A stretch of 33,498 nt of DNA from Syntrophobacteria bacterium (GTDB lineage Bacteria > Desulfobacterota > DSWW01). Under the pieces are notes generated by a model that ran no database searches, was not told the origin of the DNA, and saw only the letters and a list, made by a program, of their open reading frames with translations. Made by a program: the position numbers and the translations under genes. Position 1 is the first letter of the stretch; every line of letters begins with the position of its first letter. Location: NCBI GenBank assembly GCA_030145435.1, contig JAQYVQ010000188.1, positions 1 through 33,498 on the forward strand, read 5' to 3'. Shown piece after piece: positions 3,346-29,571 of the stretch.

Positions 3346-3580
3346 CGACGGAAGACAACTCAGGAACGGGCCGTTCCGGCAGGCAAAAACCCAGGCCCCG
3401 CGGGCTTCTTTTCCCCGGGGAACCGTAACAGGAAGAAAGAATCCATGTCAACTTCCCGCGGCCTCTCCCCCCAGATGCCCCACACACACCCCACGACCAG
3501 GGGGTGCCCGTTTGACTTCGTTTCCTGGGGTCCGATAAAAGGACTTGGGTGAAACGAAACAACACGCGACGCGGGACACC

Positions 3581-5146
3581 ATGAAAGAACATCGAGAAAC
3601 GTCTTCCCCGGCAGAACCTTCGATCACCCTTCGAATCGTCCTCCTCTGCGCTCTTTCGGCCGTCCTCTACGGACTCGCTTCTCCAAGGCCCAATCTCCAC
3701 TTCCTCTGTTGGGTGCTCTTGATCCCCCTGCTCGAAGCGTTGGACGGCCTTCGGCTGCGACGCGGTTTCCTGACGGGATGGTTGTGCGGCACGATGATGC
3801 ATCTGCTCTGCTTCTACTGGGTCATCGGAACGGTTCAACGGTACAGCAACCTTGACATCTGGCTGAGCATCCTGGTCTGGATCCTGTTCGCAATCTATTC
3901 GGGACTCGCCTTCGGTCTGATGGCTTCCCTCTTCCTCTTCCTCCGAACGGGACGATCCATTCCGGACGTCCTCCTCCTTCCCGTCTGCTACACGGCCATG
4001 GAATTCGCCTTCCCCTTCGTCTTCCCGTGGCACCTGGGAGGAGGCTTTTACCGCGTGGTGCCGGTCATCCAGATAGCCGACCTCGCCGGCGTGTACGGGG
4101 TCACCGCCCTCGTCGTCGCCGTCAATGCGGGTCTGTGGGAACTCCTCGGCTTCTTTCGCCGAAAGAGGGCCTTTCCGTGGTTCTCCTTTTCGACGGCCAC
4201 CGCCCTGGTTGCCGCCACCCTGTTTTACGGTTCCTGGCGAATCGCTGCTGTTGAACAGCAACGGCAAGCCGCCCCGGACCTGGATGTAGGGCTCGTTCAG
4301 GCCAATGTCCTCATCGAGGAAAGGCGCTCGCGCATCCAGCAGGAGGATATCTGGCGTCGCTACCGGCGCCTTTCGGATGAGGCAGTCCACCGGGGAGCGC
4401 AGTTGATCCTCTGGCCGGAGTCGGCCGTTCATTTCGCCTATCGTCCCGAGGCCGGAGCCTACTCGTCCAGCGGTTTTCTGAGGAAGTTCGTCCGTTCCCT
4501 GGACCGCCCGCTGCTCTTCGGCTCCTGGGCGGTCGAGCAGGGCAGCCCACGCAACCGGGCGTACCTGCTCGGGCCGGACGGGAGTCTCGCCGGACGGTAT
4601 GACAAGGTGAAACTGCTTGCCTTCGGCGAGTACATGCCCTTCTCCGACTGGATCCCTCAACTCAAGGGGTTGGTGAAAGGGGTCGGCGATTTCCGGCCCG
4701 GGGAGAAGATCGAGCCCCTGTGCTGGGAGAATAACTGTTTCGGGGTCCTGATCTGTTTCGAGGCGATCCTGAAGCCCATTTCAAGGGAATTTGTGGACAA
4801 GGGCGCGGAATTCCTCGTGAACATCACGAACGATGCCTGGTTCGGCGACACGAGTTGTCCGGAGCAGCACCTCATGCTCTCCGCATTCCGTGCCGTGGAG
4901 AATCGCACCTGGCTCGTGCGGGTGGCCAACACGGGAATCAGCGCCTTCGTCGACCCGGTGGGTCGTATTCTCCACCGAACGGCCGTCTTCGAACAAGCGG
5001 TCCGAGTCTGCCGCATCGACCGGATGAAGGGCTCCTCTTTCTACGGAAAATGGGGCGACTGGCTCCCCCTCTCCTGCCTGGCCCTTCTGGGTCTCCTGGG
5101 GGTGGGTCGTCTCGTACAGCGGGCAAGGGGTAGAGAGGTTCCCTGA
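3581..5146 (+). CDS. lnt: Apolipoprotein N-acyltransferase
   Basis: Multi-TM N-terminal half followed by a CN-hydrolase domain with the E-K-C triad contexts LILWPESA, KVKLLAFGEYMPF and VLICFEA. I chose the ATG at 3581; the ORF opens at a TTG at 3545. Confidence 0.9.
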   Translation: MKEHRETSSPAEPSITLRIVLLCALSAVLYGLASPRPNLHFLCWVLLIPLLEALDGLRLRRGFLTGWLCGTMMHLLCFYWVIGTVQRYSNLDIWLSILVWILFAIYSGLAFGLMASLFLFLRTGRSIPDVLLLPVCYTAMEFAFPFVFPWHLGGGFYRVVPVIQIADLAGVYGVTALVVAVNAGLWELLGFFRRKRAFPWFSFSTATALVAATLFYGSWRIAAVEQQRQAAPDLDVGLVQANVLIEERRSRIQQEDIWRRYRRLSDEAVHRGAQLILWPESAVHFAYRPEAGAYSSSGFLRKFVRSLDRPLLFGSWAVEQGSPRNRAYLLGPDGSLAGRYDKVKLLAFGEYMPFSDWIPQLKGLVKGVGDFRPGEKIEPLCWENNCFGVLICFEAILKPISREFVDKGAEFLVNITNDAWFGDTSCPEQHLMLSAFRAVENRTWLVRVANTGISAFVDPVGRILHRTAVFEQAVRVCRIDRMKGSSFYGKWGDWLPLSCLALLGLLGVGRLVQRARGREVP

Positions 5147-5158
5147 GTCCCTTTTCAC

Positions 5159-5326
5159 TCGTCCTCGTCCTCGTCCTCGTCCTCGAAATTGGGCACGGCG
5201 GCGCGGGGAGGCTACTCGCTGGCTGTTCGCCCATCCAGCAACACCCTGTCTTTCCATCAACTCATGTGCGTCAAGAAGGCGCGCCGGACATGATCGAGGA
5301 CGAGGACGAGGAGGAGGACGAGGACG
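5159..5326. repeat. Inverted pair of hexamer microsatellite modules: (TCGTCC)4-TCGAAATTGGGCACGG at 5159-5198 and (CGAGGA)-type tract at 5295-5326
   Basis: Direct reading. The reverse complement of 5295-5326 matches the left tract with one unit changed (TCCTCC). It fills the gap between the convergent lnt (stop 5146) and hydrolase (stop 5336) genes. The same module recurs in or next to the heptamer-arm elements. Confidence 0.85.
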
Positions 5327-5335
5327 ATATCCCCG

Positions 5336-5983
5336 TTACGGCGGCAGATGCCGCCCGAATCCATCCACCAGATACCCCGCGGCCTCTTTCTCACAGTTCC
5401 CGAAGAAGTGATCCGCCCCTTCCAGGATCTTCCAGTTCACTTCGTTCGGCAATTCCGAGCAGAGGGACTCTTTCCCCTCCGTCGGGCAGAACGCGTCCTG
5501 GCTTCCTGAAACGACGAACAGCGGCGCGCTGAGATCCTTGAGAAACGAGAAGGGGTACATGGCCACGGGGGGCGCGACGGCCCCCACGCAACGAACCCGG
5601 GCATCCCGGGTTGCGGCGCGAAGCCCCACCCATGCACCGAAAGAGTACCCGAGGACTCCCAGGCCGAAACCTTTCGTTTCGGGCAACGCCTCGAGCCAGT
5701 CGAGCACCCCCAGCACGTCCAGTATTTCCCCCTCCCCATCCTCGTGTCGCCCCCCGCTGGAGCCTACCCCACGGAAGTTGAAGGCCACCGCCACATAGCC
5801 GCGTTCCACAAAGGCATCGCAGAGGGCCCAAACCACATTGTTGTCCATCGACCCTCCGTATTGGGGGTGGGGGTGACAGATTACCACGCCCGGCCCGGTC
5901 GATGTCTGCTCGTCACAGCCCAGCTTCGCCTCAAGGGAAATCTCCCCCACCGGGATTTTCACATCTCTAACCTGAACCGTCAT
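5336..5983 (-). CDS. Alpha/beta hydrolase (COG2945-like)
   Basis: ORF 5336..6121 trimmed to the ATG at 5981-5983, which has GGAGAGG upstream. Motifs HPHPQYGGSMDNNVV, FNFRGVGSSGG, the nucleophile elbow GYSFGA and a C-terminal GADHFF are present. Confidence 0.8.
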   Translation of the reverse strand: MTVQVRDVKIPVGEISLEAKLGCDEQTSTGPGVVICHPHPQYGGSMDNNVVWALCDAFVERGYVAVAFNFRGVGSSGGRHEDGEGEILDVLGVLDWLEALPETKGFGLGVLGYSFGAWVGLRAATRDARVRCVGAVAPPVAMYPFSFLKDLSAPLFVVSGSQDAFCPTEGKESLCSELPNEVNWKILEGADHFFGNCEKEAAGYLVDGFGRHLPP

Positions 5984-6227
5984 ACCTCTCCACCTCTCCA
6001 ACGCTCTGAGTTCGTGTTCATACTCTCCTACCACAGTCCCTAATTTCCGGGCAACCGATGGAGAGTCCTTGCGAAAGGGGGCAAGTCTGTTGACCCCTTT
6101 CGCAGGCTGAAGCGGGCTCACGATCTTAAGCCAATGGCGGAGGAGCCCGCCACACGCACGGCCGCGGGTTTGACAGAATTCGATTCGCAGCAGATGATCG
6201 TCTTAGGGATGCTGGTTGTTGAAGGTT

Positions 6228-6373
6228 GGCTATTAGCTATTAGCTTTTAGCTGTTAGCACCCAACCACGCCCCCACCAGAACAATCAATCATCCTCGTCC
6301 TCGAACCCGGGCACGGGCATGCACGCGGGGTGGTGGCTGGACGCTAATAGCTAATGGCTAACGGCTAACAGCC
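6228..6373 (+). repeat. Mosaic palindromic intergenic element, copy E1 (heptamer arms plus C-box, TCGTCC/GGGCAC modules and G-box)
   Basis: Sequence reads GGC-TATTAGC-TATTAGC-TTTTAGC-TGTTAGC / ACCCAACCACGCCCCCACC / ...TCCTCGTCCTCGAACCCGGGCACGGGCA... / GGGGTGGTGGCTGG / GCTAATA-GCTAATG-GCTAACG-GCTAACA-GCC. It lies between the divergent hydrolase and moxR-like genes. Confidence 0.9.
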
Positions 6374-6426
6374 AATAGGCGTCTTGTTCAAAGCCCAGTA
6401 CAGCGTCAAGAAAAGGAATCCGCCGA

Positions 6427-7257
6427 ATGCCCGTACAAAGATCCTTTACCGTCGATGACGTCATTCTCCTGCTGCCCCCTCCAACCGAAATGGATGTCGA
6501 GTGGATCGGCCAGGAGGAGGTCATCCACCAGCTCCTGGCGGCCTGGATGGTTCTCGACGAGAAGGATCTTCCCCTGAACCCTCGGTTGGTGGGAAACCCG
6601 GGGATGGGGAAGACGACCTGCGCGTACGCTGCGGGCCTGCGAATCGAGAAGCCGATCTATCTATTTCAGGCCACCGTGGATACCCGGCCCGAGGATTTGA
6701 TCGTCATGCCCGTCCTCGGCCCAAAACAGGAGGTCCAGTACATGGCCTCCACGATCGTGGCGGCCACGGTCAACGGCGGCGTCTGCATTCTGGACGAGGG
6801 AAACCGGATGAACGAGAAGTCGTGGGCGTCCCTGGCCCCGCTGCTGGATCACCGCCGGTATCTGGAAAGCATGGTAACGGGCATCAAGATCCCTGCGCAC
6901 CCGGATTTCCGATTTGTCACGACCATGAACGAGGATGCCTCGACGTACGATCTGCCGGAATACATCCACTCCCGTCTGCAACCCCAGATCCACATAGACT
7001 TCCCGGAAGAGGACGAAGAGCGAGCCATCCTGAAGGCGAACATCCCGTTCGCAGAAGAAGAGATCCTGACCTATGTTCTCGCCTTCCTCGCCCGGGCCCA
7101 TCAAGCGGACGAGCGATACACCGTTCGTGACGGAATCAACATCGTCCGGTATGCAATGAAACTGCTTCATCGGGAAGAGGGAACCCCCAGCCAGATGTTC
7201 GAGAAGGCCCTTCGCCTGATCCTTGGCGAGGAGGCAATGCCCTATGTCGGTGTCTGA
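6427..7257 (+). CDS. AAA+ ATPase, MoxR class (CbbQ/NorQ-sized, AAA_5-like)
   Basis: 276 aa. It has Walker A GNPGMGKT, Walker B VCILDEGNR, the sensor region FRFVTTMNEDAS..YDLPEYIHSRL and the lid FPEEDEERAIL. An AAGGA SD lies upstream of the ATG. Confidence 0.85.
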   Translation: MPVQRSFTVDDVILLLPPPTEMDVEWIGQEEVIHQLLAAWMVLDEKDLPLNPRLVGNPGMGKTTCAYAAGLRIEKPIYLFQATVDTRPEDLIVMPVLGPKQEVQYMASTIVAATVNGGVCILDEGNRMNEKSWASLAPLLDHRRYLESMVTGIKIPAHPDFRFVTTMNEDASTYDLPEYIHSRLQPQIHIDFPEEDEERAILKANIPFAEEEILTYVLAFLARAHQADERYTVRDGINIVRYAMKLLHREEGTPSQMFEKALRLILGEEAMPYVGV

Positions 7258-11383: not shown

Positions 11384-11440
11384 GTTAGCGCCCAATCGCT
11401 GTTTGAGTCTATCCGGTGGCCGTGCAAGAGAATAGCTCTT

Positions 11441-11570
11441 GGCTGTAAGCTGTTAGCTATTAGCCCACCCCGCCCCCATTTTGGGCGCGTCCTGTTGGGG
11501 CGTGTGGTTGGGAGCTAACAGCTAAAAGCTAACGGCTAACAGCCAGGTTCGACAGGACGAGGACGAGCGG
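11441..11570 (-). repeat. Mosaic palindromic intergenic element, copy E2 (inverted relative to E1), with a flanking TCGTCC module
   Basis: The hairpin at 11441-11544 reads GGC-TGTAAGC-TGTTAGC-TATTAGC / CCACCCCGCCCCCA...GGGGCGTGTGGTTGGGA / GCTAACA-GCTAAAA-GCTAACG-GCTAACA-GCC. It is followed by GACAGGACGAGGACGAGCGG at 11551-11570. It lies between the pcm stop (11577) and the EF-G-like promoter. Confidence 0.9.
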
Positions 11571-11576: not shown

Positions 11577-12317
11577 TTAATGCTCCCCAAGAAACGGCAC
11601 AAACCGAACCGGGAGAACCGCACGCTTGGAGATGGAACCGTCGCGGCCCTTCTCGATGAGCGTCAACTGCTGTACCTGATACCTCCCACCCACCGGAATG
11701 CACATCCTGCCGCCCGGCTTGAGTTGCTGCAGTAAGGGAGGGGGAATCTCGCGGGGAGCGGCTGTCACGATAATCGCGTCGAAGGGGGCATGTTCATTCC
11801 ATCCGAGATATCCGTCACCGCGCCTCACCCGGATGTTCTTGTATCCGAGTGACTTGAGCCGGGCGCCGGCCTCCTGCGCCAGAGCAGGGCTGATTTCCAC
11901 GGTGAACACTCGGCCGACGAGCCCTGCCAGTACGGCCGCCTGGTACCCGGACCCGGTCCCGATCTCGAGAACCCGATCCCCGGGCTTCAATTGCAGCAGT
12001 TCGGTCATCAGGGCCACGATGTAAGGCTGGGAGATCGTCTGCCCCTGCCCGATCGGAATCGGATGATCGTCGTATGCCTCGTCCCGATACTCACCGGGCA
12101 CGAAGCAGTGGCGGGCCACCCCCCGCATGGCCCGCAGCACGGAGCCGTCCTTGACCCCACGAGCCTGGATCTGCTCACGGACCATCTTCTCCCGTTCTTT
12201 GGCATATCGCTCCGGGCGGCAACCCGGAGTGTCTTCGGACGCAAACGCCTCCTTGGCGCAGAACCCCAGGACGAGGAACAGGCCTGCCCAAAGAATACGA
12301 AGCATCCGGGTGTTCAC
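11577..12317 (-). CDS. pcm: Protein-L-isoaspartate O-methyltransferase with an N-terminal signal peptide
   Basis: Motifs GQTISQPYIVALMTE, VLEIGTGSGYQAAVLA, APFDAIIVTAA and RFVPF are present. The N-terminus MNTRMLRILWAGLFLVLGFCAKEAFA/SEDT has n/h/c regions and an AXA cleavage site. I prefer the GTG at 12317, which has GGAGG 7 nt upstream; an alternative ATG lies at 12305. Confidence 0.85.
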   Translation of the reverse strand: MNTRMLRILWAGLFLVLGFCAKEAFASEDTPGCRPERYAKEREKMVREQIQARGVKDGSVLRAMRGVARHCFVPGEYRDEAYDDHPIPIGQGQTISQPYIVALMTELLQLKPGDRVLEIGTGSGYQAAVLAGLVGRVFTVEISPALAQEAGARLKSLGYKNIRVRRGDGYLGWNEHAPFDAIIVTAAPREIPPPLLQQLKPGGRMCIPVGGRYQVQQLTLIEKGRDGSISKRAVLPVRFVPFLGEH

Positions 12318-12339: not shown

Positions 12340-12396
12340 TCCCACCGGGGGGGGAATGGCTGGGAGCTAATACCTAATAGCTAATACCTAACAGCC
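12340..12396 (-). repeat. Half-copy of the heptamer-arm element (E3) with a G8 tract
   Basis: The plus strand reads CCCACC-GGGGGGGG-AATGGCTGGGAGC-TAATACC-TAATAGC-TAATACC-TAACAGCC. The minus strand reads GGC-TGTTAGG-TATTAGC-TATTAGG-TATTAGC-TCCCAGCC. It has one arm only. It lies between the eno stop (12403) and the pcm start. Confidence 0.8.
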
Positions 12397-12402
12397 ATCT
12401 TT

Positions 12403-14535: not shown

Positions 14536-15201
14536 TCAAGAATGCCTGCCAGACGGCTTCTCTTCCCATCCAAACGTCCCGATCAGGGGGACGAAGACGC
14601 AGCCGGTACCTTCCTCCCTTTGAATCTTGTTCCGCTCCTTCTTGACGGTGCATAGTGTCTGGTGGTGGGCGCTCCCGATCGGGATGACCAGCCTTCCCCC
14701 CTCTGCCAGCTGTTCCACCAAGGGGTCGGGGAGCTCCGGCGCCCCGGCCGTCACGATAATCGCGTCAAAAGGGGCTTTCTCGCGCCACCCTTCCGACCCA
14801 TCCCCCACCCGGATCGAAACATTCTCATACCCCAGGCGGGAGAGCAACCCCTCCGCCCTTTCCGCCAACTCCGGAATCCTCTCGAGGGAGTAGACCTCGC
14901 GGGCGAGTTCCGCAAGAATCGCTGTCTGATATCCGGAACCGGTTCCCACCTCCAGAACACGATCGTCCGGTTCCGGCGCCGCGCACTCGGTCATCAGAGC
15001 AACCATGTAGGGCTGGGATATGGTCTGCCCCTTGCCGATGGAAAGCGGGCTGTCTTCATAAGCGTGACCGTATGAGTCCTCCGGAACAAACCGGTGCCTG
15101 GGTATCTTCTCCATGGCGGCCAGAACCCGGTGGCTCCGAACCCCTCTCTTTAGAATCTGGCGTTCCACCATCCGCTGGCGCTGGCGCTCGTAATCGGTCA
15201 C
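14536..15201 (-). CDS. pcm: Protein-L-isoaspartate O-methyltransferase (cytoplasmic copy)
   Basis: Motifs GQTISQPYMVALMTE, VLEVGTGSGYQTAILA, APFDAIIVTAG and VFVPL are present, with no signal peptide. I prefer the GTG at 15201, with AGGAG overlapping the archease stop. The ORF extends to a GTG at 15234, and an ATG alternative lies at 15171. Confidence 0.85.
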   Translation of the reverse strand: MTDYERQRQRMVERQILKRGVRSHRVLAAMEKIPRHRFVPEDSYGHAYEDSPLSIGKGQTISQPYMVALMTECAAPEPDDRVLEVGTGSGYQTAILAELAREVYSLERIPELAERAEGLLSRLGYENVSIRVGDGSEGWREKAPFDAIIVTAGAPELPDPLVEQLAEGGRLVIPIGSAHHQTLCTVKKERNKIQREEGTGCVFVPLIGTFGWEEKPSGRHS

Positions 15202-15214
15202 GCAGCCGGTTCTC

Positions 15215-15676
15215 CTAGAGATCCATGACCACACGGGCGACCCATCCCCTCTTGGTCCTCCGAATCTGAACGTCGTGGTAGGTCACGGCCTTGATTTCAC
15301 GCTGCCCTGCCATTCGGTTGTCCGTAAGCATCTCCCAGCCACCACGCACAACCACCCTGCAACCTCCCGCCCCCTCTTCGTCTCGCAGGACGGACAGTTC
15401 CTGAAGGTCGAGCCGCCTTCTTTCTACGGTCGCCCTGTAAAGGAGTTCCCCGAGAAGCTCTACGAGGGCCTCCTCCGGATCCTGTCCTTTGATTTCCAGT
15501 CTTTCCCCAGGGGCGGTAGCTCTACGACCCGACACGGCCGGCAGTCCCATGAGCAGGTAGAGCGACTCCACGGCGTTTCGGAAAAGCTCCTTCTCATCCT
15601 TCCCCTGTATCTCCACGCGCAGATCGGCGGTGTGGTCGAGTTCTCTGAAAGGCACCTTCCGGCTTGATTCCTTCAC
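15215..15676 (-). CDS. Archease
   Basis: This is the C-terminal 153 codons of ORF 15215..15928. FRELDHTADLRVEIQG.DEKELFRNA, IKAVTYHDVQI and W.ARVVMDL match the archease family. I chose the GTG at 15676 because the acyP gene ends at 15697. The start is uncertain. Confidence 0.75.
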   Translation of the reverse strand: MKESSRKVPFRELDHTADLRVEIQGKDEKELFRNAVESLYLLMGLPAVSGRRATAPGERLEIKGQDPEEALVELLGELLYRATVERRRLDLQELSVLRDEEGAGGCRVVVRGGWEMLTDNRMAGQREIKAVTYHDVQIRRTKRGWVARVVMDL

Positions 15677-15981: not shown

Positions 15982-16105
15982 ACCCTCTCCCCTCCCCTAC
16001 CTTCCAGCAGCCTTCCGTGCCCTCTGGAGTGATGATAGAAGTACCACAATTGCCTTGGTTTTACCAACGGTCGTGCAGGGTGGCCAGGGCATTTGCCCTC
16101 ATTCG

Positions 16106-16151
16106 CTCGTCCTCGAATTCGGGCACGGGCACGCGCACGGGCACGGGCACG
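16106..16151 (+). repeat. Stand-alone TCGTCC/GGGCAC hexamer module (microsatellite-like)
   Basis: Sequence reads CTCGTCCTCGAATTC-GGGCAC-GGGCAC-GCGCAC-GGGCAC-GGGCAC-G. It is the same module found in the loop of E1 and next to E5. It lies in the divergent acyP / LolA-like intergenic region. Confidence 0.85.
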
Positions 16152-17107: not shown

Positions 17108-17150
17108 GCGGCAGCCGACAAACGACCCTCCGGTGCTGTACCTTATGCTT

Positions 17151-17239
17151 GGCTGTTAGCTGTTAGCTCCCAACCCCTCCCCCAATCGAGACGCACCTAT
17201 AGAAGGGCGGGGTGGGCTAAAAGCTAAGAGCTAACAGCC
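17151..17239 (+). repeat. Mosaic palindromic intergenic element, copy E4
   Basis: Sequence reads GGC-TGTTAGC-TGTTAGC / TCCCAACCCCTCCCCC...GGGCGGGGTGG / GCTAAAA-GCTAAGA-GCTAACA-GCC. It lies between the LolA-like stop (17107) and the queE start (17289). Confidence 0.9.
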
Positions 17240-18580: not shown

Positions 18581-19939
18581 ATGGCTCTATTGAATCACTC
18601 CAAAAAAGAATTGAGCGCAAAGATCGTCTACTACGGGCCCGGACTGTCCGGGAAAACCACGAACCTCGAGTGGATTCACCGGAAGCTGGCTCCCGACAAG
18701 CGGGGCAAGCTGATCTCCCTCGAGACCAAGACGGACCGTACGCTCTTCTTCGATTTTCTGCCCGTCCAGATCGGGGAAATATCCGGGTTTCGAACCCGCT
18801 TCAATGTCTACACCGTCCCCGGCCAGATCTTCTACAACGAAACACGAAGGATGGTACTGAAGGGTGTTGACGGAATCGTCTTCGTTGCGGACTCCCAGAA
18901 AGAGATGGCCAACGAAAACCTGGAAAACCTGAAGAACCTGGCCGAGAACCTTCGCTCCATCGGAAAGGAGCTCGCCAAGGTTCCCTTGGTGATTCAATTC
19001 AACAAGAGGGACCTGGCGAACATCCTGTCCGTGGAAGAGATGAATCGCCTCCTGAACGCACCCGGTCTCCCCTTCTTCGAGGCTGTCGCCGTCAAGGGAG
19101 AGGGTGTCCTCACAACCCTGACCCGGATCACGCGGGTCGTGGCGGATCACCTGCAACAGACCCTGTTCGCTTCCTCGGGAACCGGCGCTCCGGCCGGCCG
19201 GCCCGATCCCGTTCCACCTCCGGGGACCAGGAACGAGCCTCCTCGTGCGATTTTCGAATCAACAACTCGGCCCTCCGAGTCCGACACCCCTGCATTCCTG
19301 AGCAAGCAGCCTCAGACTGCACCGCCAAGCGGGATTCCGGAGCCTCATGTTTTTTCTCAAGATAAAGTTGTAACTCCCTCTTTTGGTGAATCTTTTGGAG
19401 GGGACAATACACCGAATACCCCCCGACCAAGCCTTGCTTCCGTCGGTTCTCCGGCTGCGCAGCCTCTCCCCTCAGACGACATCCCGAGTCTGGGAGACTT
19501 CGGTGAGCCTCCTCAAACCAAGCCGGATCTGGACACGATTCCAACCCTGGCTTCCCTTGAGACCACTCCAACCAGAGAGGTTGGCTCTCCAAAGGATACC
19601 GTAGTCCCCATGGACAGGGCAGCCCCCAGGGACAGGGTAATCCCCATGGAGAGGCCATCCGCCGCCGAAATGGCATCCGACCAACCAGCGCCTGCACCCG
19701 CGACCCCAGAGGCCCCCACGGGATCCTACTGGGTGGATCCTTCGATCGTGTCGGTCGCGGCCGAAAAGGTTTCCGCCCCCGAGTCTCAGCAAGGCGTAGC
19801 GCTCAGGTTTGGGGAGCCTGAAAGAGAGAGCGGAAATCAGGTGAGAATTCCCGTTGCTCTCCGGCTGGAAGCCACCAATGAGCTCATCTCTTTTCAGATG
19901 GTCATCCGGGTCGAGCAGGAACCAGGCGGATCCTCCTGA
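18581..19939 (+). CDS. mglA: MglA-family Ras-like GTPase with a ~260-aa Pro/Ser/Thr-rich C-terminal extension
   Basis: The first ~190 aa align by eye almost throughout with Myxococcus MglA as I recall it: KIVYYGPGLSGKTTNL, TDRTLFFDFLP, YTVPGQIFY, GVDGIVFVADSQ, QFNKRD. A low-complexity P/S/T-rich tail follows, ending in a ~60-aa beta-like segment (VALRFGEP...ISFQMVIRVEQ). Confidence 0.85.
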   Translation: MALLNHSKKELSAKIVYYGPGLSGKTTNLEWIHRKLAPDKRGKLISLETKTDRTLFFDFLPVQIGEISGFRTRFNVYTVPGQIFYNETRRMVLKGVDGIVFVADSQKEMANENLENLKNLAENLRSIGKELAKVPLVIQFNKRDLANILSVEEMNRLLNAPGLPFFEAVAVKGEGVLTTLTRITRVVADHLQQTLFASSGTGAPAGRPDPVPPPGTRNEPPRAIFESTTRPSESDTPAFLSKQPQTAPPSGIPEPHVFSQDKVVTPSFGESFGGDNTPNTPRPSLASVGSPAAQPLPSDDIPSLGDFGEPPQTKPDLDTIPTLASLETTPTREVGSPKDTVVPMDRAAPRDRVIPMERPSAAEMASDQPAPAPATPEAPTGSYWVDPSIVSVAAEKVSAPESQQGVALRFGEPERESGNQVRIPVALRLEATNELISFQMVIRVEQEPGGSS

Positions 19940-20147
19940 GACAAAAAGATTAGGGTTCGGGGATCAGGGGTCAGACCCACTCCCCCCCCCCCTTTTAACC
20001 GCGCACGGCACTGTACCCACTAACCACTTCCCACCATACAATCGACTGTTCCCTATTTTTTTCCCCAAGCAGCTGTCCCAATTATCCCTACGGAAGACCT
20101 CCTCAAAACGGAGCGGGAAGAGGGTGTCAGGAACCTTTTCTTCTCCT

Positions 20148-20245
20148 GGCCATTAGCGATTAGCTCCCCGCCCCCAACGGGATGCACACAAAATGGGGGT
20201 GGCGTGGGCTGATAGCTGATAGCCAAAAGCCGGGCACGGGCACGG
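20148..20245 (+). repeat. Mosaic palindromic intergenic element, copy E5, with a flanking GGGCAC module
   Basis: Sequence reads GGC-CATTAGC-GATTAGC / TCCCCGCCCCCAAC...AAAATGGGGGTGGCGTGG / GCTGATA-GCTGATA-GCC over 20148-20224, then AAAAGCC-GGGCAC-GGGCAC-GG to 20245. It lies between the convergent mglA-like (stop 19939) and CPBP (stop 20272) genes. Confidence 0.9.
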
Positions 20246-21036: not shown

Positions 21037-22335
21037 TTAGGCATCCCTCTCTGTTGTCATCCTCTCGTAGCACGCCAGCACGGATTCGTATTCCATTTCC
21101 ATTGTGGCACCCGGCGCACAGGTCGAATCGCCCACCAGAAAGAGGCCCTCCACGTTCGGGACACGGTAGCCCGGTCTGTCTTTCCTGGTTTGATCCGACT
21201 GAATGGCAATGCTGTCCAGCATTCGAACCACATGGGAGCGCTTCCATTCGACCGCCATTTCCGCCCGCGGAAGGGCCTTCCGAAGGTTTTCTTCGATCTT
21301 CTTCTCCAGGGCCCTCACCACCTCCGGTTGTCGCACTTCTTCAGGGGAGCAAGGGCAGACGAACGTGGCGAGTTGTTTCCCCGCGGGGGCATGGCGATGA
21401 CACAGGTTCGACAAGAAGGTGCCATAGCTGGGTGGGTCCATGAAGAACCAGAGGCCCTTCTTGTGGAAGATGCGGTTCTTCAGGGCAAGGTCGACGATCA
21501 GTGCGGCGGAGGGTACCGCCTTCTCGCAGAGATTGACGAATTCTTTCGTCGTAGCCCCCTCGGGCAGGAGACTGACCAATTGCTGACAGGGCGCAGCGCA
21601 GACCACATGTGAGGCCTCCAGCGTCTCCCCCCCCACCCTGACACCCGTCACCTTGCCTTCCTTGATCTCGATCCTCTCGACCCTTGTCCGCCATCGGATT
21701 TCCCCGTGGTTCTCGATCTCCCGCTCGAGCCCTTCCAGAATCGGGATCCACCCCTCTCGCGGGTAAGCCAGGTAAGAGCGCAACCGGAAGGCCTTCTGGA
21801 AGCACCGCAAGGTCTCCCCCGCGGATATCTTCTCTGGGGCGGTACAGTGGGTCGATTCATAGGCAAGGACCTTCAAGTACTTCTGCAGGCTCCCGCGTAT
21901 ATTGTTGCGGACGAACCACTCCTCCAGGCTTTCCTCCTCCATATCCTCCAGCGTCTCTCCTTTCAGGCTACGGAGAAGCCTCAGGGCGAAAACCCAATCC
22001 CATTTGGAGAAGAAGTCAGCCCGAAGAATCCCGGGCTTTCCGATCGTAATCCGACGGACCTTCTGATCCGTATCGAGAACCCAGGCCTGGTTCAAGGGGA
22101 CGAGGAGCGGTTTCAAGCCGAGCTGCTTGCATATTCTGTAGAAAGGGCCCTTTTCTCCATAGCGGACCCGCGGAATCCCCGGCAGCGAGAGAAAGCCGTC
22201 CCGTTCCCAGGGTGCGGCTCTTCCCCCGGCGACCCTCTTCCTTTCCAGCATGAGAACCTTCCATCCCGCCCGGGCCAGCATGGCACCGAGGGTCATTCCA
22301 GGAAGGGTAGCGCCCAAAAGGATACAGTCATACAT
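21037..22335 (-). CDS. FAD/NAD(P)-dependent oxidoreductase (phytoene desaturase/CrtI-like family)
   Basis: 432 aa. The N-terminal dinucleotide-binding fold reads DCILLGATLPGMTLGAMLARAGWKVLMLERKRVAGGRA. The C-terminal GLFLVGDSTCPG-like motif reads GLFLVGDSTCAPGATME. Confidence 0.75.
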   Translation of the reverse strand: MYDCILLGATLPGMTLGAMLARAGWKVLMLERKRVAGGRAAPWERDGFLSLPGIPRVRYGEKGPFYRICKQLGLKPLLVPLNQAWVLDTDQKVRRITIGKPGILRADFFSKWDWVFALRLLRSLKGETLEDMEEESLEEWFVRNNIRGSLQKYLKVLAYESTHCTAPEKISAGETLRCFQKAFRLRSYLAYPREGWIPILEGLEREIENHGEIRWRTRVERIEIKEGKVTGVRVGGETLEASHVVCAAPCQQLVSLLPEGATTKEFVNLCEKAVPSAALIVDLALKNRIFHKKGLWFFMDPPSYGTFLSNLCHRHAPAGKQLATFVCPCSPEEVRQPEVVRALEKKIEENLRKALPRAEMAVEWKRSHVVRMLDSIAIQSDQTRKDRPGYRVPNVEGLFLVGDSTCAPGATMEMEYESVLACYERMTTERDA

Positions 22336-22348
22336 CGGAAAAGACCCC

Positions 22349-23710
22349 TCAAGCGGGCTCGAGACCCGGAGGATCGAAAGAATCCTCTATGCGGATGAAC
22401 AGGCTCTTATCGAGCGCCACCTCCAATCGATCGATCACGTCCAGGGCATGCCGCACATCACGCTCTCTCGCCTCGTGGGTGAGCATGATGATGTGCACGG
22501 GGCCTGCTTGCTGTCGCCCCTTCTGGATGACCGAATCTATGGAGATCCCGTGATCCCCCAGGATTCCCGAGATCTTCGAGAGAACCCCCGGCCGATCAAC
22601 GACGGGAAAGCGCATGTAGTATTTCGTGACGAGCTCCTCCATCGGTCGCAACCGCGCATCCTGGGGGAACTGGCCATAGAAACCCAGGGCAGGAATGTCG
22701 TGGGGCATGCCCGGGCGCATGTTCCGTGCCAGCGAGACGAGGTCGCTCACCACGGCGCTCCCGGTGGGCATCATGCCTGCCCCCTTCCCGTAGAACATGA
22801 CCGGCCCCGTTCCTCGTCCGGTGGCGTAGACTGCGTTGAAGGCATGGCCTACCGAGGCGAGAAGGTGCGATTCCGGGATCATGGTGGGATGCACGCGTGC
22901 CTCGAGTTCGCCGTCCAGGATCTTCGAAAGGGCCAACAGCTTGATCCGGTACCCCAATTCCCTCGCATAACGTATGTCCATGCCCGTCACGCGCTGTATT
23001 CCCTCCGTGAAGATATCCTCCGGGTGCACACTAACCCCGCAGGCCAACCCGATCAGAATCGCCAATTTGTGGGCCGTATCCTGCCCCTCGATATCGAGAC
23101 TCGGATCCGCCTCAGCATATCCCTTTTCTTGCGCCTCCTTCAGGCACTCGGGAAACTCCCTTCCCTGTTCCGTCATCGTGGAGAGGATGTAGTTCGCGGT
23201 GCCATTGATAATTCCGGCGATCGACAGAATCCGATCGGCGGCCAAACCCTCCCGCAAGCTTCGAACGATCGGAATGCCGCCCGCCACAGCGGCCTCGAAC
23301 CCGATCTGCACTCCCTTCGCCTCTGCGGCCTGGAACAGCTCCGTCCCGTGGGAGGCCAGCAATGCCTTGTTGGCCGTGACCACGTGCTTCCCCGCTGCAA
23401 TCGCATCGAGCACAAAGGACTTGGCCGGCTCGATCCCGCCCATCAGTTCGATCAGGACCCGGATCTCCGGGTCTTCGAGGATGTCTTCCACGCGGGTCGA
23501 GGTCTGGACCTTCTCCAGGGAGACCCCCCGATCCCGCTCGAGATCAAGGTCGGCGATTCGTTTCAGCCTTATCTGCCTTCCCGACCTTCTCTCCAGCCAG
23601 GCGGCTTCCTCCAGGAGAATCTTGGCCACTCCCGTTCCCACCGTACCGAATCCGGCCAGTCCTACCTGCAGCGCTTCCAAGGTCTCCCTCCTCCCAGTGG
23701 GGTGACTCAC
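22349..23710 (-). CDS. hom: Homoserine dehydrogenase
   Basis: It has the NAD-binding motif VGLAGFGTVGTGV, the catalytic region HVVTANKALLA and a C-terminal ACT domain (RFPVVDRPGVLSKISGILG). The ORF opens at a GTG at 23710. A TTG at 23680, preceded by GGGAGGAGGGAG, is a plausible true start. Confidence 0.9.
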   Translation of the reverse strand: MSHPTGRRETLEALQVGLAGFGTVGTGVAKILLEEAAWLERRSGRQIRLKRIADLDLERDRGVSLEKVQTSTRVEDILEDPEIRVLIELMGGIEPAKSFVLDAIAAGKHVVTANKALLASHGTELFQAAEAKGVQIGFEAAVAGGIPIVRSLREGLAADRILSIAGIINGTANYILSTMTEQGREFPECLKEAQEKGYAEADPSLDIEGQDTAHKLAILIGLACGVSVHPEDIFTEGIQRVTGMDIRYARELGYRIKLLALSKILDGELEARVHPTMIPESHLLASVGHAFNAVYATGRGTGPVMFYGKGAGMMPTGSAVVSDLVSLARNMRPGMPHDIPALGFYGQFPQDARLRPMEELVTKYYMRFPVVDRPGVLSKISGILGDHGISIDSVIQKGRQQAGPVHIIMLTHEARERDVRHALDVIDRLEVALDKSLFIRIEDSFDPPGLEPA

Positions 23711-23731
23711 AAGTTCTGTCGCAGAGGTCTT

Positions 23732-24937
23732 CTACAAGACCTGCCGTATGCCTCTGGCCGCCTGCTGGATCCTCTGCTCGTTCTCGACCAGAGCGAAGCG
23801 CACGTACCCCTCACCGAATTCCCCAAACCCGACGCCCGGCGAGACAGCCACCTTCGCCTCCTTGAGCAGGAGCTTGGTGAACTCCAGGGACCCCATTTTC
23901 TGAAAGGGCTCCGGGATCTTCGCCCAGACAAACATGGTCGCCTTCGGCTTCTCGATCTCCCATCCGGCCCGGCCCATCGCGTCGATCAATACGTCCCGTC
24001 TCTTCTGATACACATCCACGATGGATTGCACGCACTCCTGCGGGCCGTTCAAGGCAACGGTGGCGGCAATCTGGATCGGTTGAAAGATGCCGTAATCGAG
24101 ATAGCTCTTTATACGGGTCAGGGCCCCGATCATCTCCTTGTTGCCTACGACGAAGCCGATCCGCCAGCCCGGCATGTTGTAGCTCTTCGACATGGAGAAC
24201 ATCTCCACGCCCACGTCCCTGGCTTCCGGCACCTCGAACAGGCTGGGCGCCTGGTAGCCGTCGAAACAAAGATCCGAATAGGCAAAATCGTGGATGATCA
24301 GGATCTTGTTTTCCCTTGCGATGGAGACGATCTTCTCGAAGAAGCTCTTGTCCACCACGCGCGTCGTCGGGTTGTGGGGAAAGCTCAGGATCATCATGCT
24401 CGGACGCGGCCAGGTCCCCTTTATGGCCCGGGTAAGGTCCTCGAAGAAGTCCCGATCCGGGCTGATGGGAACACTGTGCACGTCCGCCCCGGCGATCATG
24501 ACCGAATACATGTGGATCGGGTAGGTCGGATTCGGAACGAGCACGATGTTTCCCGGCCCCAGGGTCGCCAGGGCAAGGTGAGCCAGCCCTTCCTTTGCGC
24601 CTATCGTCGCAATTGCCTCCGAATCCGGATCGAACTCCACCCCGTATCGCCTGCGGTACCAATCCACGATGGCCAGCCGAAGCTTGTAAATCCCTCTCGA
24701 GACGGAATACCGATGATTCCGCGGGTTCTGGATCGCCTCGGTGATCTTGTCCACGATGTGGGGAGGGGCCCCGTGATCCGGGTTCCCCATCCCGAGGTCG
24801 ATGATGTCCTCGCCGGCCCTCCGCGCCTCCATCTTCATCGCATCCACCGTACTGAACACGTAAGGAGGAAGCCTCTTCATCCTCGCAAACTCGAGGTCCA
24901 GCCCCTTCCGCTCCTCCTGCGTCTCGATAACCGACAC
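23732..24937 (-). CDS. Class I/II PLP-dependent aminotransferase (alanine/aspartate aminotransferase, AlaC-like)
   Basis: 401 aa. It contains DLGMGNPD, the NPTYP-type region VPNPTYPIH, and the PLP-lysine context [15 protein letters not shown]. It has a GTG start with AAGGAGGA 5 nt upstream. Confidence 0.9.
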
Positions 24938-24995
24938 GGTTTTCCTCCTTCTTAAGTTTTCATTCCTCCCCGAGGAGGCTGTCTTGGCAAGCCCC

Positions 24996-25571
24996 CTACC
25001 GGGGGGCGTATGCTTCCAGGAAGTTCTTCAAGAGAGTCTTCCCGCTCGTTGTCAAGATGGATTCCGGGTGGAACTGGACGCCTTCGATCGCAAGCCTCTT
25101 GTGCCTGACACCCATGATCTCACCGTCTTCTGATGTGGCCGTCACCTTCAGGCAGGACGGCAACCCCTTCCGCCGAATCGCGAGTGAGTGGTACCGCGTG
25201 GCGGTGAAAGGGTTTTCCAGCCCCTGGTAGATCCTTCTTCCGTCATGTCGGACGCGGGACACCTTGCCGTGCATCAGCCTCGCGGCCGAGTCGATCCGCG
25301 CGCCAAAGGCGAAACCGATCGCCTGATGGCCCAGGCAGACCCCGAGGATCGGCAGCCTCCCCGCGAGGGTGCGGACGGCTTCAACCGAGATTCCCGCGTT
25401 CTGAGGCACCCCCGGACCGGGAGAAATGATCAGATAGTCCGGCCTCGCCCTCTCGATCTCTTTCGTGGAGACCGCATCGTTACGACGAACCAGGACCTTG
25501 TTCCCCATTTCCTGGAAGTACTGAACCAGGTTGTAGGTAAAGGAATCGTAGTTGTCAATCATGAAGATCAT
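24996..25571 (-). CDS. trpG: Anthranilate synthase component II (glutamine amidotransferase, TrpG/PabA type)
   Basis: [31 protein letters not shown] and GVQFHPES are present. The ATG at 25571 overlaps the trpE stop by 17 nt. Confidence 0.9.
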
Positions 25572-27087
25572 ACACGACACCCTCTTCCCAGTCCTCGGCA
25601 AGGGAGAAACCCTGTCTTGCCCACTGGATCGCCTTGATCATGGCCCGTGCCTTATTGAGGCACTCCTGGTATTCACGCGCCGGCTTGGAGTCCGCCACGA
25701 TGCCCGCTCCGGTCTGCAAGTACAATCGATCACGCATGGCGAGGATCGTGCGAATCACGATCGCCATGTCCATGTTCCCTGAAAAACTGAAGTAGCCCAC
25801 GGCCCCGCCGTAGGGGCCTCGCCGATGGGGCTCCAGCTCCTCGATGATCTCCATGGCCCGTATCTTCGGTGCTCCCGAAAGGGTGCCCGCAGGGAAGCAG
25901 GCCCGAAACGCGTCAAAACAATCCTTCCCCCTTCCCAAACGCCCCTTCACGTGCGAGACGAGGTGCATGACGTGTGAATACCGTTCACAGACCATCAGGT
26001 CTTCCACTTCCACGGTCCCCGGGGCCGAGACTCTCCCCACATCGTTCCGTCCCAGGTCGACGAGCATGATGTGTTCTGCGAGTTCCTTCTCATCCCGCCT
26101 CAGTTCCGCGGCGAGCTTCTCATCCGCCCGAGGGGTTCCCCCCCGGGGACGGGTGCCCGCGATCGGGCGAACTTCCACCGAAGTCCCTTCGACGCGCACC
26201 AGCACTTCCGGTGAAGATCCCACCAACGCGTAGTGAGGGTACTGCAGGAAGAACATGTAGGGGGAAGGGTTCACGAGTCGCAACGACCGGTAGAGCGAGA
26301 ACGGATCGACAGCCTCCTGGACCTCCAGTCTCTGAGAAATGACCGCCTGGATGATGTCCCCGCTTCTGACATAGGCCTTCGTCTTCTTCACGGCTTCCAG
26401 GTACTCTTTTCTCCTCATGTTCGCCTTCACACGCAGTTTCCCGCCCGTCTTTTGCGGCGCCTTCGGACGCAAAGGGGCCCGCAGCCGTTGAACGGTCTTC
26501 TCGATCCTCTCCACCGTTGCCTGATAGGCCTCTTTCGGGTTCGCGTGGTCCGGCAGGTAGCAGCAGGAGACCACGCGGATCGTGTGGCTGATGTTGTCGA
26601 AGATGAGCAGGCATTCGGGGATGACCATGTAGATGTCCCATACGTCGAGGACCTGCTCCGCCCGTTCCGGGAGGCGCTCGAAGAACCGGACGGTGTCGTA
26701 CCCCAAATACCCCACGGCGCCTCCGTAGAACCGGGGCATATCGGCGCTGGACACGGGCCGGTATCGCCTCATGAAATCCCGAAAGGCAAAGAACGGGTCT
26801 TCCACCTCCTCGCGGCGTCGCCTTCCCCCTTTCTCCACCACCTCGATTTGACGGCCCCTGCACCGGAACACCGACGCAGCGCCCGTGCCCAGAAAGCTGA
26901 ACCGTGCCCATCTCTCCCCCCCTTCGACGCTCTCCAACAGAAAGCCGTGAGTCCCCGGGTTGAGCTTCAGGTAGGCGGAGACCGGCGTATCCTGATCGGC
27001 CAGGATCTCGCACGATACGGGCACCAGGTTGCCCTTTCGTAGGAGAGCGCTGAACTCCGAAAAGGACGGGCGTATGGAGAGGTTCAT
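25555..27087 (-). CDS. trpE: Anthranilate synthase component I
   Basis: 510 aa. It contains LLESVEGGERWARFSF, GAVGYLGYD, RGPYGGAVGYFS and GAGIVADS. A strong SD (AGGAGGAG) lies 5 nt upstream of the ATG. Confidence 0.95.
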   Translation of the reverse strand: MNLSIRPSFSEFSALLRKGNLVPVSCEILADQDTPVSAYLKLNPGTHGFLLESVEGGERWARFSFLGTGAASVFRCRGRQIEVVEKGGRRRREEVEDPFFAFRDFMRRYRPVSSADMPRFYGGAVGYLGYDTVRFFERLPERAEQVLDVWDIYMVIPECLLIFDNISHTIRVVSCCYLPDHANPKEAYQATVERIEKTVQRLRAPLRPKAPQKTGGKLRVKANMRRKEYLEAVKKTKAYVRSGDIIQAVISQRLEVQEAVDPFSLYRSLRLVNPSPYMFFLQYPHYALVGSSPEVLVRVEGTSVEVRPIAGTRPRGGTPRADEKLAAELRRDEKELAEHIMLVDLGRNDVGRVSAPGTVEVEDLMVCERYSHVMHLVSHVKGRLGRGKDCFDAFRACFPAGTLSGAPKIRAMEIIEELEPHRRGPYGGAVGYFSFSGNMDMAIVIRTILAMRDRLYLQTGAGIVADSKPAREYQECLNKARAMIKAIQWARQGFSLAEDWEEGVVYDLHD

Positions 27088-27701
27088 AAGTTCTCCTCCT
27101 TCTTCCCCACGGGTCGGATCAGGATATCCTTGTACCCCTCCCTCTGTTCGAGACGTTCTTTGACCTCCGCGGCCATCTCCGCACTCGGTAACGGTCCCAC
27201 AAAGACCCTCGAATACCCGCCATCCGCCCCGGAGGGATCGGACGCACGGAGGAAACAGCGGTATCCTTTCTTCCGCAGTTCCCGTACGAGATGTTCCGCA
27301 CGCTCCGGTTCACGGAAAGAGGCGATCTGAAGCACCGCGACTCCGGCTTGCCCGTCCTCGGCGGACGGCTTCGACAGCGCCTCCGTCGGGCGGGCCTTCG
27401 GGGCGACGGACGGGCGCCCCACACCTACTTCCTCATCAGGGGCCGTCAGGGACTCCTCGAAGGAAAGAACCGGGAGTTCTTCCTCGGCCACGACACTTTC
27501 GTCGGCCCTGTATACTCTCCGAATCTCCCGCATCTGCTCCGTGCGTCCCACCAGGATGCCCACATAGAATGCCAGGCCTGAAACGCCAACCCAGATGAAG
27601 AACAGGCAGAGGAGTGAAAGGGGAGAAAAACGGATCTCTGTAGGACGCCTTTTGGTCGCCTTCCCCATCTCGTGGCCCCGCCAGAGTGTACCCTCATCCA
27701 T
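27084..27701 (-). CDS. SPOR domain-containing membrane protein
   Basis: It has an N-terminal TM helix (LSLLCLFFIWVGVSGLAFYVGILVG), a low-complexity linker and a C-terminal SPOR-like domain (VAVLQIASFREPERAEHLVRELRKKGY...YSRVFVGPL.S...A). The stop overlaps the trpE ATG (ATGA). An alternative start lies at 27668. Confidence 0.75.
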   Translation of the reverse strand: MDEGTLWRGHEMGKATKRRPTEIRFSPLSLLCLFFIWVGVSGLAFYVGILVGRTEQMREIRRVYRADESVVAEEELPVLSFEESLTAPDEEVGVGRPSVAPKARPTEALSKPSAEDGQAGVAVLQIASFREPERAEHLVRELRKKGYRCFLRASDPSGADGGYSRVFVGPLPSAEMAAEVKERLEQREGYKDILIRPVGKKEENL

Positions 27702-27708
27702 CTCTCAA

Positions 27709-27723
27709 AATCCGAGTCGGATT
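27709..27723. promoter_or_regulatory. Perfect 7-1-7 palindrome AATCCGA-G-TCGGATT immediately upstream of the SPOR-trpEG operon
   Basis: Direct reading. It lies 8 nt upstream of the ATG at 27701 on the minus strand. It could be an operator or an RBS-proximal hairpin; its function is unknown. Confidence 0.25.
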
Positions 27724-27805
27724 GTATCCCAACATTCCGACCCGGTCAATTTTGGCATCCATGTGCACACCCTTCGCTGGCTGGACCCAATCATGCCATT
27801 GTGTT

Positions 27806-27935: not shown

Positions 27936-28023
27936 ATCCTACTCGCTTTCCGTCCCCCCTTGTGTCATTCTGGGGGCGTCTAGAGACGCCTGGCAGAAAT
28001 GCCTACAAGTGGATCCTTCAGAG

Positions 28024-29454: not shown

Positions 29455-29496
29455 CAGTTAGGTCATTCGCTCCCATCCTGACCCCTTTACCTCTGC

Positions 29497-29525: not shown

Positions 29526-29571
29526 ATAGAACAAATCGTTCGACGGAAGAGAAACAACACACAGAAGCCCG

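Follow-up and report, generated by a model that had tools for sequence, protein, structure and literature searches.

The window, i.e., the whole stretch of DNA that was analysed (33,498 nt; positions 1 to 33,498 of contig JAQYVQ010000188.1, assembly GCA_030145435.1, Syntrophobacteria bacterium), harbors six copies of an intergenic repeat whose arms are built of tandem heptanucleotides with TTAGC on one side and GCTAA on the other, and which in its full form folds into a long hairpin (Table 1). The genes of the window constitute an ordinary housekeeping set, with products including an alpha/beta hydrolase, an AAA_5 ATPase, EF-G, two paralogues of protein-L-isoaspartate methyltransferase (PCMT), enolase, a Ras-like GTPase, TrpE/TrpG, an M48 peptidase, a sigma factor, SurA and DnaJ; no transposase was revealed by Pfam annotation of this 33-kb window. 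The gene map was corrected by synteny with related contigs, and a 901-aa open reading frame (ORF) at 22250–24955 (+), which has no Pfam match, was discarded as spurious because synteny places three minus-strand genes there, coding for an amine oxidase, a homoserine dehydrogenase and an aminotransferase. The exact enolase of the window is recorded only on one 2.5-kb metagenome contig of the Joint Genome Institute (JGI), which is 99.85% identical to the window, and all relatives with 78–96% enolase identity are uncultured. The relative in assembly CAYLMK01 (88% enolase identity) keeps synteny with the window over 20 kb.

Table 1. Heptamer-armed elements (el1–el6) and hexamer modules of the window, with their parts, the stability of the RNA fold and the surroundings.
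Feature	Position	Strand	Parts	RNA fold	Surroundings
el1	6226–6375	+	full hairpin; left arm 6226–6258 (5 units), C-box 6259–6277, nested hexamer module 6292–6319, G-box 6325–6342, right arm 6343–6375	−71.6 kcal/mol, z −7.3	divergent spacer; promoter-like site 6170–6198 (TTGACA, 17-nt spacer, GATGAT) ~30 nt upstream
el2	11432–11546	− (core strand)	full hairpin; arms 11432–11464 and 11514–11546, boxes 11465–11477 and 11497–11513	z −5.0	between PCMT stop (11577) and EF-G promoter-like site 11383–11354; flanked by (GGACGA)2 at 11555–11567
el3	12345–12397	−	half element; box 12345–12365, one 4-unit arm 12366–12397	no fold by itself, z −0.7	85-nt enolase–PCMT spacer; begins 7 nt past enolase stop, ends just before PCMT ribosome-binding site
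el4	17149–17239	+	full hairpin; left arm 17149–17167, C-box 17168–17183, G-box 17205–17215, right arm 17216–17239	z −5.7	181-nt co-directional spacer (by synteny); TP_0789-like gene stop 17107, radical-SAM gene start 17289
el5	20147–20226	+	short hairpin; left arm 20147–20164 (2 units), C-box 20165–20175, consensus loop AACGGGATGCACACAAAAT, G-box 20195–20207, degenerate right arm (GCTGATA)2 at 20208–20226	z −5.2	convergent spacer; GTPase stop 19939, Rce1-like stop 20272; adjoined by (GGGCAC)2 at 20231–20245
el6	27804–27936	+	full hairpin; left arm 27804–27837, C-box 27838–27855, hexamer array in loop 27865–27892, G-box 27894–27904, right arm 27905–27936	z −5.5	divergent spacer
Stand-alone hexamer module	16105–16151	+	(TCGTCC)2, TCGAATTCG, (GGCACG)5	z −1.1, not significant by itself	
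Hexamer-armed inverted repeat	5158–5327	.	(CTCGTC)4.7 at 5158–5185, (CGAGGA)5.5 at 5295–5327		convergent spacer; LNT stop 5146, hydrolase stop 5336

The motif TTAGCNNTTAGC has 18 matches on the two strands of the window, while 0.00 are expected from 100 dinucleotide-preserving shuffles, and all 18 fall within the five full hairpins and the one half element, always between genes. Period-7 arrays were reported by Tandem Repeats Finder only at the element sites of the window, with an exception of one 2-copy TTCTTCG array. A profile constructed from 32 family copies matches exactly six sites in the window with fixed orientation (el1, el4, el5 and el6 plus, el2 and el3 minus); the top match is el2 (E-value, 1e-18), and the half element el3 matches profile positions 1–54. 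The palindromes which the earlier note, made from the sequence alone, had reported at 6228–6373 and elsewhere are as described there, including the single arm at 12340–12396, where an arm and a G-box were confirmed. Folded as RNA, the five full sites reach −44 to −72 kcal/mol with z-scores of −5.0 to −7.3, so a full copy at a gene boundary places a long stem-loop there. With DNA parameters, the z-scores of the full sites are −3.5 to −5.5, and only −1.6 for el5. The placement at operon boundaries proposed in the same note holds in part: the promoter-like site upstream of el1 is kept in relatives and puts el1 into the 5′ untranslated region of the AAA_5 operon, and el3 and el4 are located between co-directional genes.

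The consensus of the family reads (NTTAGCT)2–9, TCCCAACCACTCCCCC, a ~20-nt loop AACGGGATGCACGCAAAAT, GGGGGCGGGGTGG and (GCTAANA)2–9. Thus, the C-box TCCCAACCACTCCCCC, the loop and the G-box GGGGGCGGGGTGG make up an asymmetric core of ~50 nt between inverted GCTNTTA arrays, and a subset of the copies carries the added outer termini CCGaTTCTTGGCT / AGCCAAGAAtCGG. Each unit had been thought to contain two variable nucleotides. The inner one is indeed free, but the outer one is T in 84% of the cases on the left arm and A in 79% on the right arm; the heptamer unit is thus GCTNTTA, with one free position, and the stem consists of 6-bp blocks (UUAGCU/AGCUAA) split by a 1 × 1 mismatch per heptamer. 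Similarly, the letters GGC and GCC taken as the start and end of the element are present, but they represent the degenerate final unit TTGGC...GCCAA. The unit composition is strand-symmetric between the two arms, and arms with at least three units contain TAG/TAA stops in all six frames. Since the arms read alike on both strands, the effects of hairpin and stop codons are independent of orientation.

A metagenome scan with TTAGCNNTTAGCTCCCAACC yielded 45 loci. In those with a GC content of 0.58–0.62, like that of the window, 42 hairpins with a left arm followed by a right arm (L...R) were found, which have the core in common with the window elements and are 78–85% identical to them; the presence of a dense repeat family, as initially supposed, is thus substantiated. 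In the window and the long loci there is about one copy per 5–10 kb (2–3 copies per 10–14 kb in the long loci), which by extrapolation would give several hundred copies per genome. None of the family copies, either from the window or from the metagenomes, is located inside an ORF, in line with the strictly intergenic position noted before. The spacers that harbor 41 family copies are tandem in 18 cases, convergent in 16 and divergent in seven. In co-directional contexts, the core has the same orientation as the genes in nine cases and the opposite one in five, a difference that is not significant and that includes four calls corrected by hand.

Comparison of orthologous sites in relatives revealed how the elements change. 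Contig RCNG010000324.1 (L504) is 98.8% identical to positions 24818–33498 of the window, and 42 of the 103 differences are found within 27800–28000, at el6, where the left arm has a 14-nt (two-unit) indel, the G-box a 6-nt indel, and L504 one right unit fewer. The ortholog of el4 in L496 contains one extra left unit, and the arm of the half element el3 is composed of four units in the window, four in L538 and two in L540/L541, el3 being identical in L001. At the el1 site, among relatives with 94–96% enolase identity, L540 has a plain copy and the window copy has a small hexamer module in its loop; the ortholog in L539 possesses a ~210-nt loop full of hexamer arrays, and the site in L127 contains hexamers only. 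Element el2 is shared by the window and L539 but missing from L540, in which its site is a bare hexamer module, GTGCC-AAAGATCGA-(GGACGA)n. The arms, then, evolve in the manner of hypermutable simple-sequence repeats, and entire copies come and go. No copy was found in the syntenic region of L127/L128 (95% enolase identity) and L122–L126 (88–89%). The recent gain in the window lineage that L122–L128 had suggested was rejected in view of the orthologous copies in L538–L541 at 94–96% enolase identity, and a truncated copy in L087, a member of the 88% lineage, indicates that the family predates these lineage splits.

The gene neighbourhood around the repeat-bearing PCMT/enolase/EF-G spacers is also rearranging. 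The PCMT paralogues (11577–12317 and 14536–15234) are situated on either side of enolase, L539 is without the PCMT copy adjoining EF-G, and L125/L126 have an additional gene of ~815 aa between PCMT and EF-G.

The second type of module found at these sites is made up of hexamers. The succession (TCGTCC)n, TCGAATTCG, (GGCACG)n is a hairpin in which (CGTCCT)n pairs with (GGCACG)n with one C × C mismatch per unit, and the stand-alone module at 16105–16151 folds with one mismatch per unit. In about half of the 41 family copies, a hexamer module is found either on both sides of the heptamer hairpin, consistently ordered a...b or b′...a′, or in its loop, so the modular, nested layout which had been likened to that of bacterial interspersed mosaic elements (BIMEs) is apt as a description. 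The hexamer-armed inverted repeat at 5158–5327, with a GGGCAC unit and a decayed GGCTGTT-like stretch in the ~110 nt between its arrays, may be a decayed composite element. It was also observed that the hexamer modules of the window (16105–16151, 5158–5198, 20231–20245 and 11555–11567) share the one-mismatch-per-unit design of the heptamer stems, and that hexamer modules occur in relatives without heptamer hairpins (L127, L128 and L125).

Although bacteria have been known to carry heptanucleotide repeats for over 30 years, neither a function nor a means of spread is, to our knowledge, accepted for them. According to PMC4679880, which summarises Mrazek 2007, no other long simple-sequence repeats are as common in bacteria, and the heptanucleotide repeats are put down to polymerase slippage. 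The STRR heptamers, put forward earlier as the closest analogue, are therefore of the right kind (PMC4679880). Like STRR and TAACTGA repeats, the latter known from Beggiatoaceae, Cyanobacteria and Bacteroidetes (MacGregor 2015, PMC4679880), the present family has tandem 7-nt intergenic units with stop codons in all frames and a varying unit number, one type is dominant per genome, and the distribution across phyla is patchy. Unlike TAACTGA repeats, however, of which only one out of 170 sets is inverted in the BOGUAY genome (PMC4679880), the GCTNTTA arrays are converging inverted pairs that surround a conserved core and form hairpins; besides, TAACTGA arrays are found just upstream of start codons, whereas GCTNTTA arrays mostly follow stop codons. 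The unit GCTNTTA matches no named type: it differs from TAACTGA and goes unmentioned in the paper on those repeats (PMC4679880), and it is not known to belong to STRR1–3. In Rfam, no match was obtained at the gathering score for the window and for hairpins in 12 other loci, or at E ≤ 1 for positions 5100–6450, and TTAGC-heptamer strings were not found in a literature search, which agrees with the initial failure to assign a named family.

Repetitive extragenic palindromic (REP) sequences, BIMEs and REPINs (PMC2817692, PMC3116915, PMC3733652) are likewise lineage-specific, high-copy intergenic palindromes with inverted halves forming a larger hairpin, with module mosaics and with a preference for co-directional or convergent spacers. 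They differ from the present family, in which the stems are tandem heptamers of varying number, no small palindrome tagged with GTAG/CGTC is present, and no REP-associated tyrosine transposase (RAYT) was found in the window or the loci collected. MITEs of bacteria (short for miniature inverted-repeat transposable elements; PMC3184786) are similar in size (80–150 bp), terminal inverted repeats, lack of coding capacity, dispersed intergenic location, presence/absence among relatives and nested insertions; here, in contrast, the inverted repeats are 7-bp arrays that vary in number between copies and strains, no target-site duplication could be read at the one filled/empty site compared, and no parent insertion sequence with the same ends was found. 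Hence, traits of heptanucleotide simple-sequence repeats (head-to-tail 7-nt units above chance, intergenic position, unit number varying between strains), of MITEs (inverted ends bounding a short non-coding element, presence/absence among relatives) and of REP/BIME sequences (high copy number, intergenic position, inverted halves, nested mosaic with hexamer modules) are all present, and the family constitutes a variant, not described so far, of both heptanucleotide simple-sequence repeats and hairpin elements of the REP/MITE-like kind.

The elements of the window may well be a dispersed repeat of the REP/MITE kind that is non-autonomous, specific to its lineage and present in many copies, and whose ends are heptanucleotide simple-sequence repeats. 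The core-bearing unit has been copied to many intergenic sites in either orientation, and its arms change in length by whole 7-nt units, in the manner of simple-sequence repeats undergoing replication slippage. For its spread, an enzyme acting in trans would have to be supplied from another part of the genome, as neither the element nor the window encodes one.

In order to place the arms in a wider context, a genome collection was scanned with three TTAGC units, i.e., 15 fixed bases in 596 Gb. Because about 1,100 chance matches are expected in such a volume, single hits mean little; nearly all of the listed genome matches are true arrays of 3–20 units. The genome counts given here all refer to the matches listed. 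Arrays not more than 300 nt apart form 46 pairs in L...R and eight in R...L order, and 117 TTAGC arrays are solo, with no partner arm. The pairs occur in at least ten phyla, the pair-bearing groups being Acidobacteriota, Planctomycetota, Desulfobacterota, Bacteroidota, Bacillota, Gammaproteobacteria, Chloroflexota, Saccharibacteria, Cyanobacteriota and Actinomycetota, and among the carriers are the cultured Cnuella and Emticicia. The cores are unrelated across lineages and common within one genome (L060, L063 and L028). No pair lies in an ORF; 25 are in tandem, eight in divergent and six in convergent spacers, and in tandem contexts the element begins at a median of 10 nt past the upstream stop. 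The occurrence of hairpins with TTAGC/GCTAA arms in many phyla makes the element of the window less strange, and its scope wider.

Viral contigs were scanned with four-unit arrays of four 5-mer cores. For TTAGC, at least 120 loci with a 4-unit array were found, with 45 close inverted pairs in the converging order and 16 in the opposite one among the matches listed; for AACTG, there are likewise at least 120 loci, with the order CAGTT...AACTG favoured 35 to 2 among the matches listed. As for the controls, ATCGT yielded 82 loci with rare inverted pairs (5 vs. 3), and TGTAC 43 loci without any close inverted pairs. The TTAGC and AACTG types are alike in having the T-rich arm 5′ and the A-rich arm 3′. 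Hairpins of the form (NNCAGTT)n...(AACTGNN)n with short loops were observed in the viral contigs L376, L390, L420, L422, L426, L435, L437, L441 and others, and in L435 such a hairpin is directly followed by AGGAGG. This inverted-pair form, related to the published TAACTGA direct repeats, does not seem to have been described.

These scans also bear on another explanation, according to which the arrays are simple-sequence repeats born in place by slippage from palindromic seeds, with neither copying of an element nor a function. The carrier loci contain 52 heptamer arrays of other sequences, and period-7 arrays dominate there (140, compared with 1, 6, 3 and 1 arrays of periods 5, 6, 8 and 9, respectively) in many different sequences, in agreement with the published prevalence of heptanucleotide repeats (PMC4679880). 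Furthermore, 4-unit arrays were obtained by the tens for the control cores as well in viral contigs, where chance would give about none, and near-identical strains differ by whole-unit indels, as el6 and L504 do. On the other hand, all heptamer arrays of the window belong to one type, conservation of the unit's core positions extends over hundreds of units, and a ~50-nt asymmetric core at dozens of unrelated loci cannot arise by local slippage, so that origin in place appears quite unlikely.

Returning to the dispersed-repeat interpretation of the window elements, there are results that weigh against it. Neither a transposase nor a RAYT-like motif nor an autonomous copy was detected in the window or in any of the loci collected, which for the window bears out the absence of a transposase or RAYT-like gene asserted in the earlier note (Pfam and motif scan). 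No target-site duplication is legible at the sole filled/empty pair, el2 vs. L540, the flanks of which are too diverged. In addition, six of the seven unit positions are conserved over hundreds of units, in many phyla, and one is drifting freely, which is not predicted by neutral decay of a selfish repeat and speaks for recognition of a specific sequence or for selection acting on the arms. Finally, the arms recur with unrelated cores in at least ten phyla and in phages, and this, together with the 46:8 order and the placement at stop codons, suggests that they have a role of their own. It should be added that the spacers are too diverged from those of the 95% relatives to be aligned for precise insertion junctions.

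It is highly improbable that these elements are a REP/BIME (REPIN) family moved by a RAYT tyrosine transposase, with the repeated TTAGC acting as a GTAG-like head. The high-copy intergenic distribution, the inverted halves and the mosaic of modules are those of BIMEs and REPINs (PMC2817692, PMC3116915, PMC3733652), and TTAG resembles GTAG, but the halves of the family are not 20–40-bp palindromes, no unpaired GT(A/G)G or CGTC tag is found beside a small stem, the C-box and G-box are not self-complementary, and the "head" is a tandem array. Moreover, a regular-expression scan of all loci collected for the HUH...Y...NP[LV][RK]xG motif returned 0 matches, which is a weak negative confined to these loci.

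The possibility of an autonomous element enclosed by distant L...R arrays (400–3500 nt) was rejected. The ORFs between such arrays, which include those for a sensor kinase, a sigma factor and phage structural proteins, are ordinary and unrelated, and no protein recurs among them.

Two phage loci illustrate how tightly the hairpins may be fitted between genes. Locus L197, a prophage contig in which an integrase gene is present, contains seven TTAGC hairpins, and locus L155, encoding a minor head protein and Dit, contains five; their core is of its own GC-rich type, TTTGCGCGCTGCGGCGCGCGAGTAACTTTA. In L197 (8700–10900), the TAG of a left arm terminates each of four consecutive small ORFs, and the next ORF starts ~11 nt past the right arm, behind GGAGG. 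In L155 (3900–10500), the hairpins occupy tandem and convergent spacers between the structural genes. The cassette region of L197 has no blastn match to cultured phages. In these compact phage genomes, the cassette constitutes the entire intercistronic region, which is the main argument for a possible function at the RNA level or through protein binding.

Intercistronic RNase III sites of phage T7 and REP hairpins that stabilise mRNA 3′ ends are precedents for intercistronic RNA elements. By analogy, it is possible, though short of probable, that the hairpins are intercistronic RNA elements. Once transcribed, the arms would form a long A-form stem of 6-bp blocks, mismatched once per heptad, which could serve for RNase III cleavage, as a block to 3′-to-5′ exonucleases, or for polymerase pausing or termination. 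Ribosomes arriving in whatever frame would meet the UAG/UAA units both ahead of the stem and past it and stop there, and the palindromic arms would serve both orientations and convergent gene pairs. This agrees with the left-arm stops and the ribosome-binding sites in L197, the filled spacers of L155, the fold stability (z −5 to −7) and the convergent spacers, which are over-represented in the window family (16 of 41). It also agrees with the placement of the hairpins, which in co-directional contexts are nearer to the upstream stop (medians: genomes, 8–10 nt; viral contigs, 5 nt) than to the next start (22–45 nt).

The RNA tests, however, gave no positive support for such a role, although a stem that tolerates its periodic mismatch might still act as RNA. 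Across 32 copies, none of 13 predicted pairs shows a double change (covariation term, 0.01), so the covariation analysis advised in the earlier note came out negative. Free positions pair at the chance rate (26/110 Watson–Crick vs. 30% expected), and on the sense strand no excess of G–U over A–C was detected (21/22, 21/22 and 5/17). No U-tract follows the stems, the terminator scan gave only trivial 5-bp sub-hairpins inside two arms, and the total of terminator-scan sites in the window is below the shuffle mean. In addition, two of the six window copies are located in divergent spacers, and many TTAGC arrays are solo (117 vs. 46 pairs among the matches listed). A combination of six-frame stop and terminator as the sole function was rejected, given the two divergent copies, the missing U-tract, and the AACTG type, which has stops in its 3′ arm only.

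Binding of a protein to the arms as DNA may be considered as well. The omega repressor of plasmid pSM19035 reportedly binds contiguous WATCACW heptads, direct and inverted, with one dimer per heptad, and in mycobacteriophages the so-called stoperators are dispersed intergenic repressor sites. With the omega operators, the arms have in common contiguous 7-bp units, a conserved 5-bp core, direct and converging runs, and a run orientation that matters; those operators, though, are a few promoter-proximal plasmid arrays with a known binding protein, while here hundreds of chromosomal sites have a shared core between the arms. Following this analogy, each 7-bp unit would be a putative site for a small DNA-binding protein, binding would be cooperative on direct runs converging on each other, and the arrays would act as operators, as roadblocks or in nucleoid organisation. 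The conserved 5–6 bp core with one or two free positions per unit, the strand symmetry of the arms, the preference for converging order (46:8 in genomes and 45:16 in viral contigs, among the matches listed), the existence of solo direct arrays and the lack of any RNA-type asymmetry are all consistent with this proposal. It nevertheless seems unlikely, as no candidate protein was identified, and hundreds of sites per genome, in all kinds of spacers and in many phyla, call for a very widespread or repeatedly evolved binder; moreover, the shared core invariably accompanies the arms in the window family, although nothing in a pure operator model requires it. Both the RNA-element and the operator explanations concern function, and they are compatible with a mobile origin of the window elements.

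A broader proposal can be put forward tentatively, namely that the (NNTTAGC)n...(GCTAANN)n hairpins are more than the selfish repeat of one lineage and form a cassette that marks gene boundaries widely in bacteria and phages, its heptad being read by a conserved factor, e.g., an RNase III-type processing step or a heptad-binding protein. Such a cassette would close the upstream reading frame, insulate the transcript or have it processed, and offer the ribosome-binding site that comes next; cores specific to each lineage would be superimposed on it, and CAGTT...AACTG would be a sister type. The recurrence of TTAGC/GCTAA arms across phyla and in phages, with its order rule and stop-codon placement, appears to be undescribed.

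As regards the significance of these observations, the family links heptanucleotide repeats to a defined, copyable hairpin with a recognisable core, and the orthologous sites in graded relatives allow unit changes, nesting and loss to be traced. The cross-phylum data add a rule for arm order, the tight placement at stop codons and, in phages, the left-arm stop and the ribosome-binding site past the right arm, while the culturable carriers Cnuella takakiae RG1-1 (L021) and Emticicia sp. SJ17W-69 (L089) permit experimental tests. If the arms turn out to be recognised by a conserved factor, they would represent a new general class of intergenic punctuation; if not, the family would be one more of the REP/MITE-like kind, its use lying mainly in marking strains and in accounting for breaks in assemblies.

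Other inverted heptamer pairs were also encountered in the carrier loci. In L058, a Pyrinomonadaceae metagenome-assembled genome (MAG), positions 3567–3649 contain the pair GAGTGAT...ATCACTC, and in L105, a Thermoanaerobaculia MAG, CGAGCCT / AGGCTCG inverted pairs are found at 134–246 and 7001–7241; thus, the armed-hairpin design is not confined to the TTAGC and AACTG cores. Within the coding sequences of the window, the gene for the Ras-like GTPase (18581–19939) contains three copies of the 18-nt unit GTAGTCCCCATGGACAGG at 19601–19654, which would encode an in-frame 6-residue repeat in the protein.

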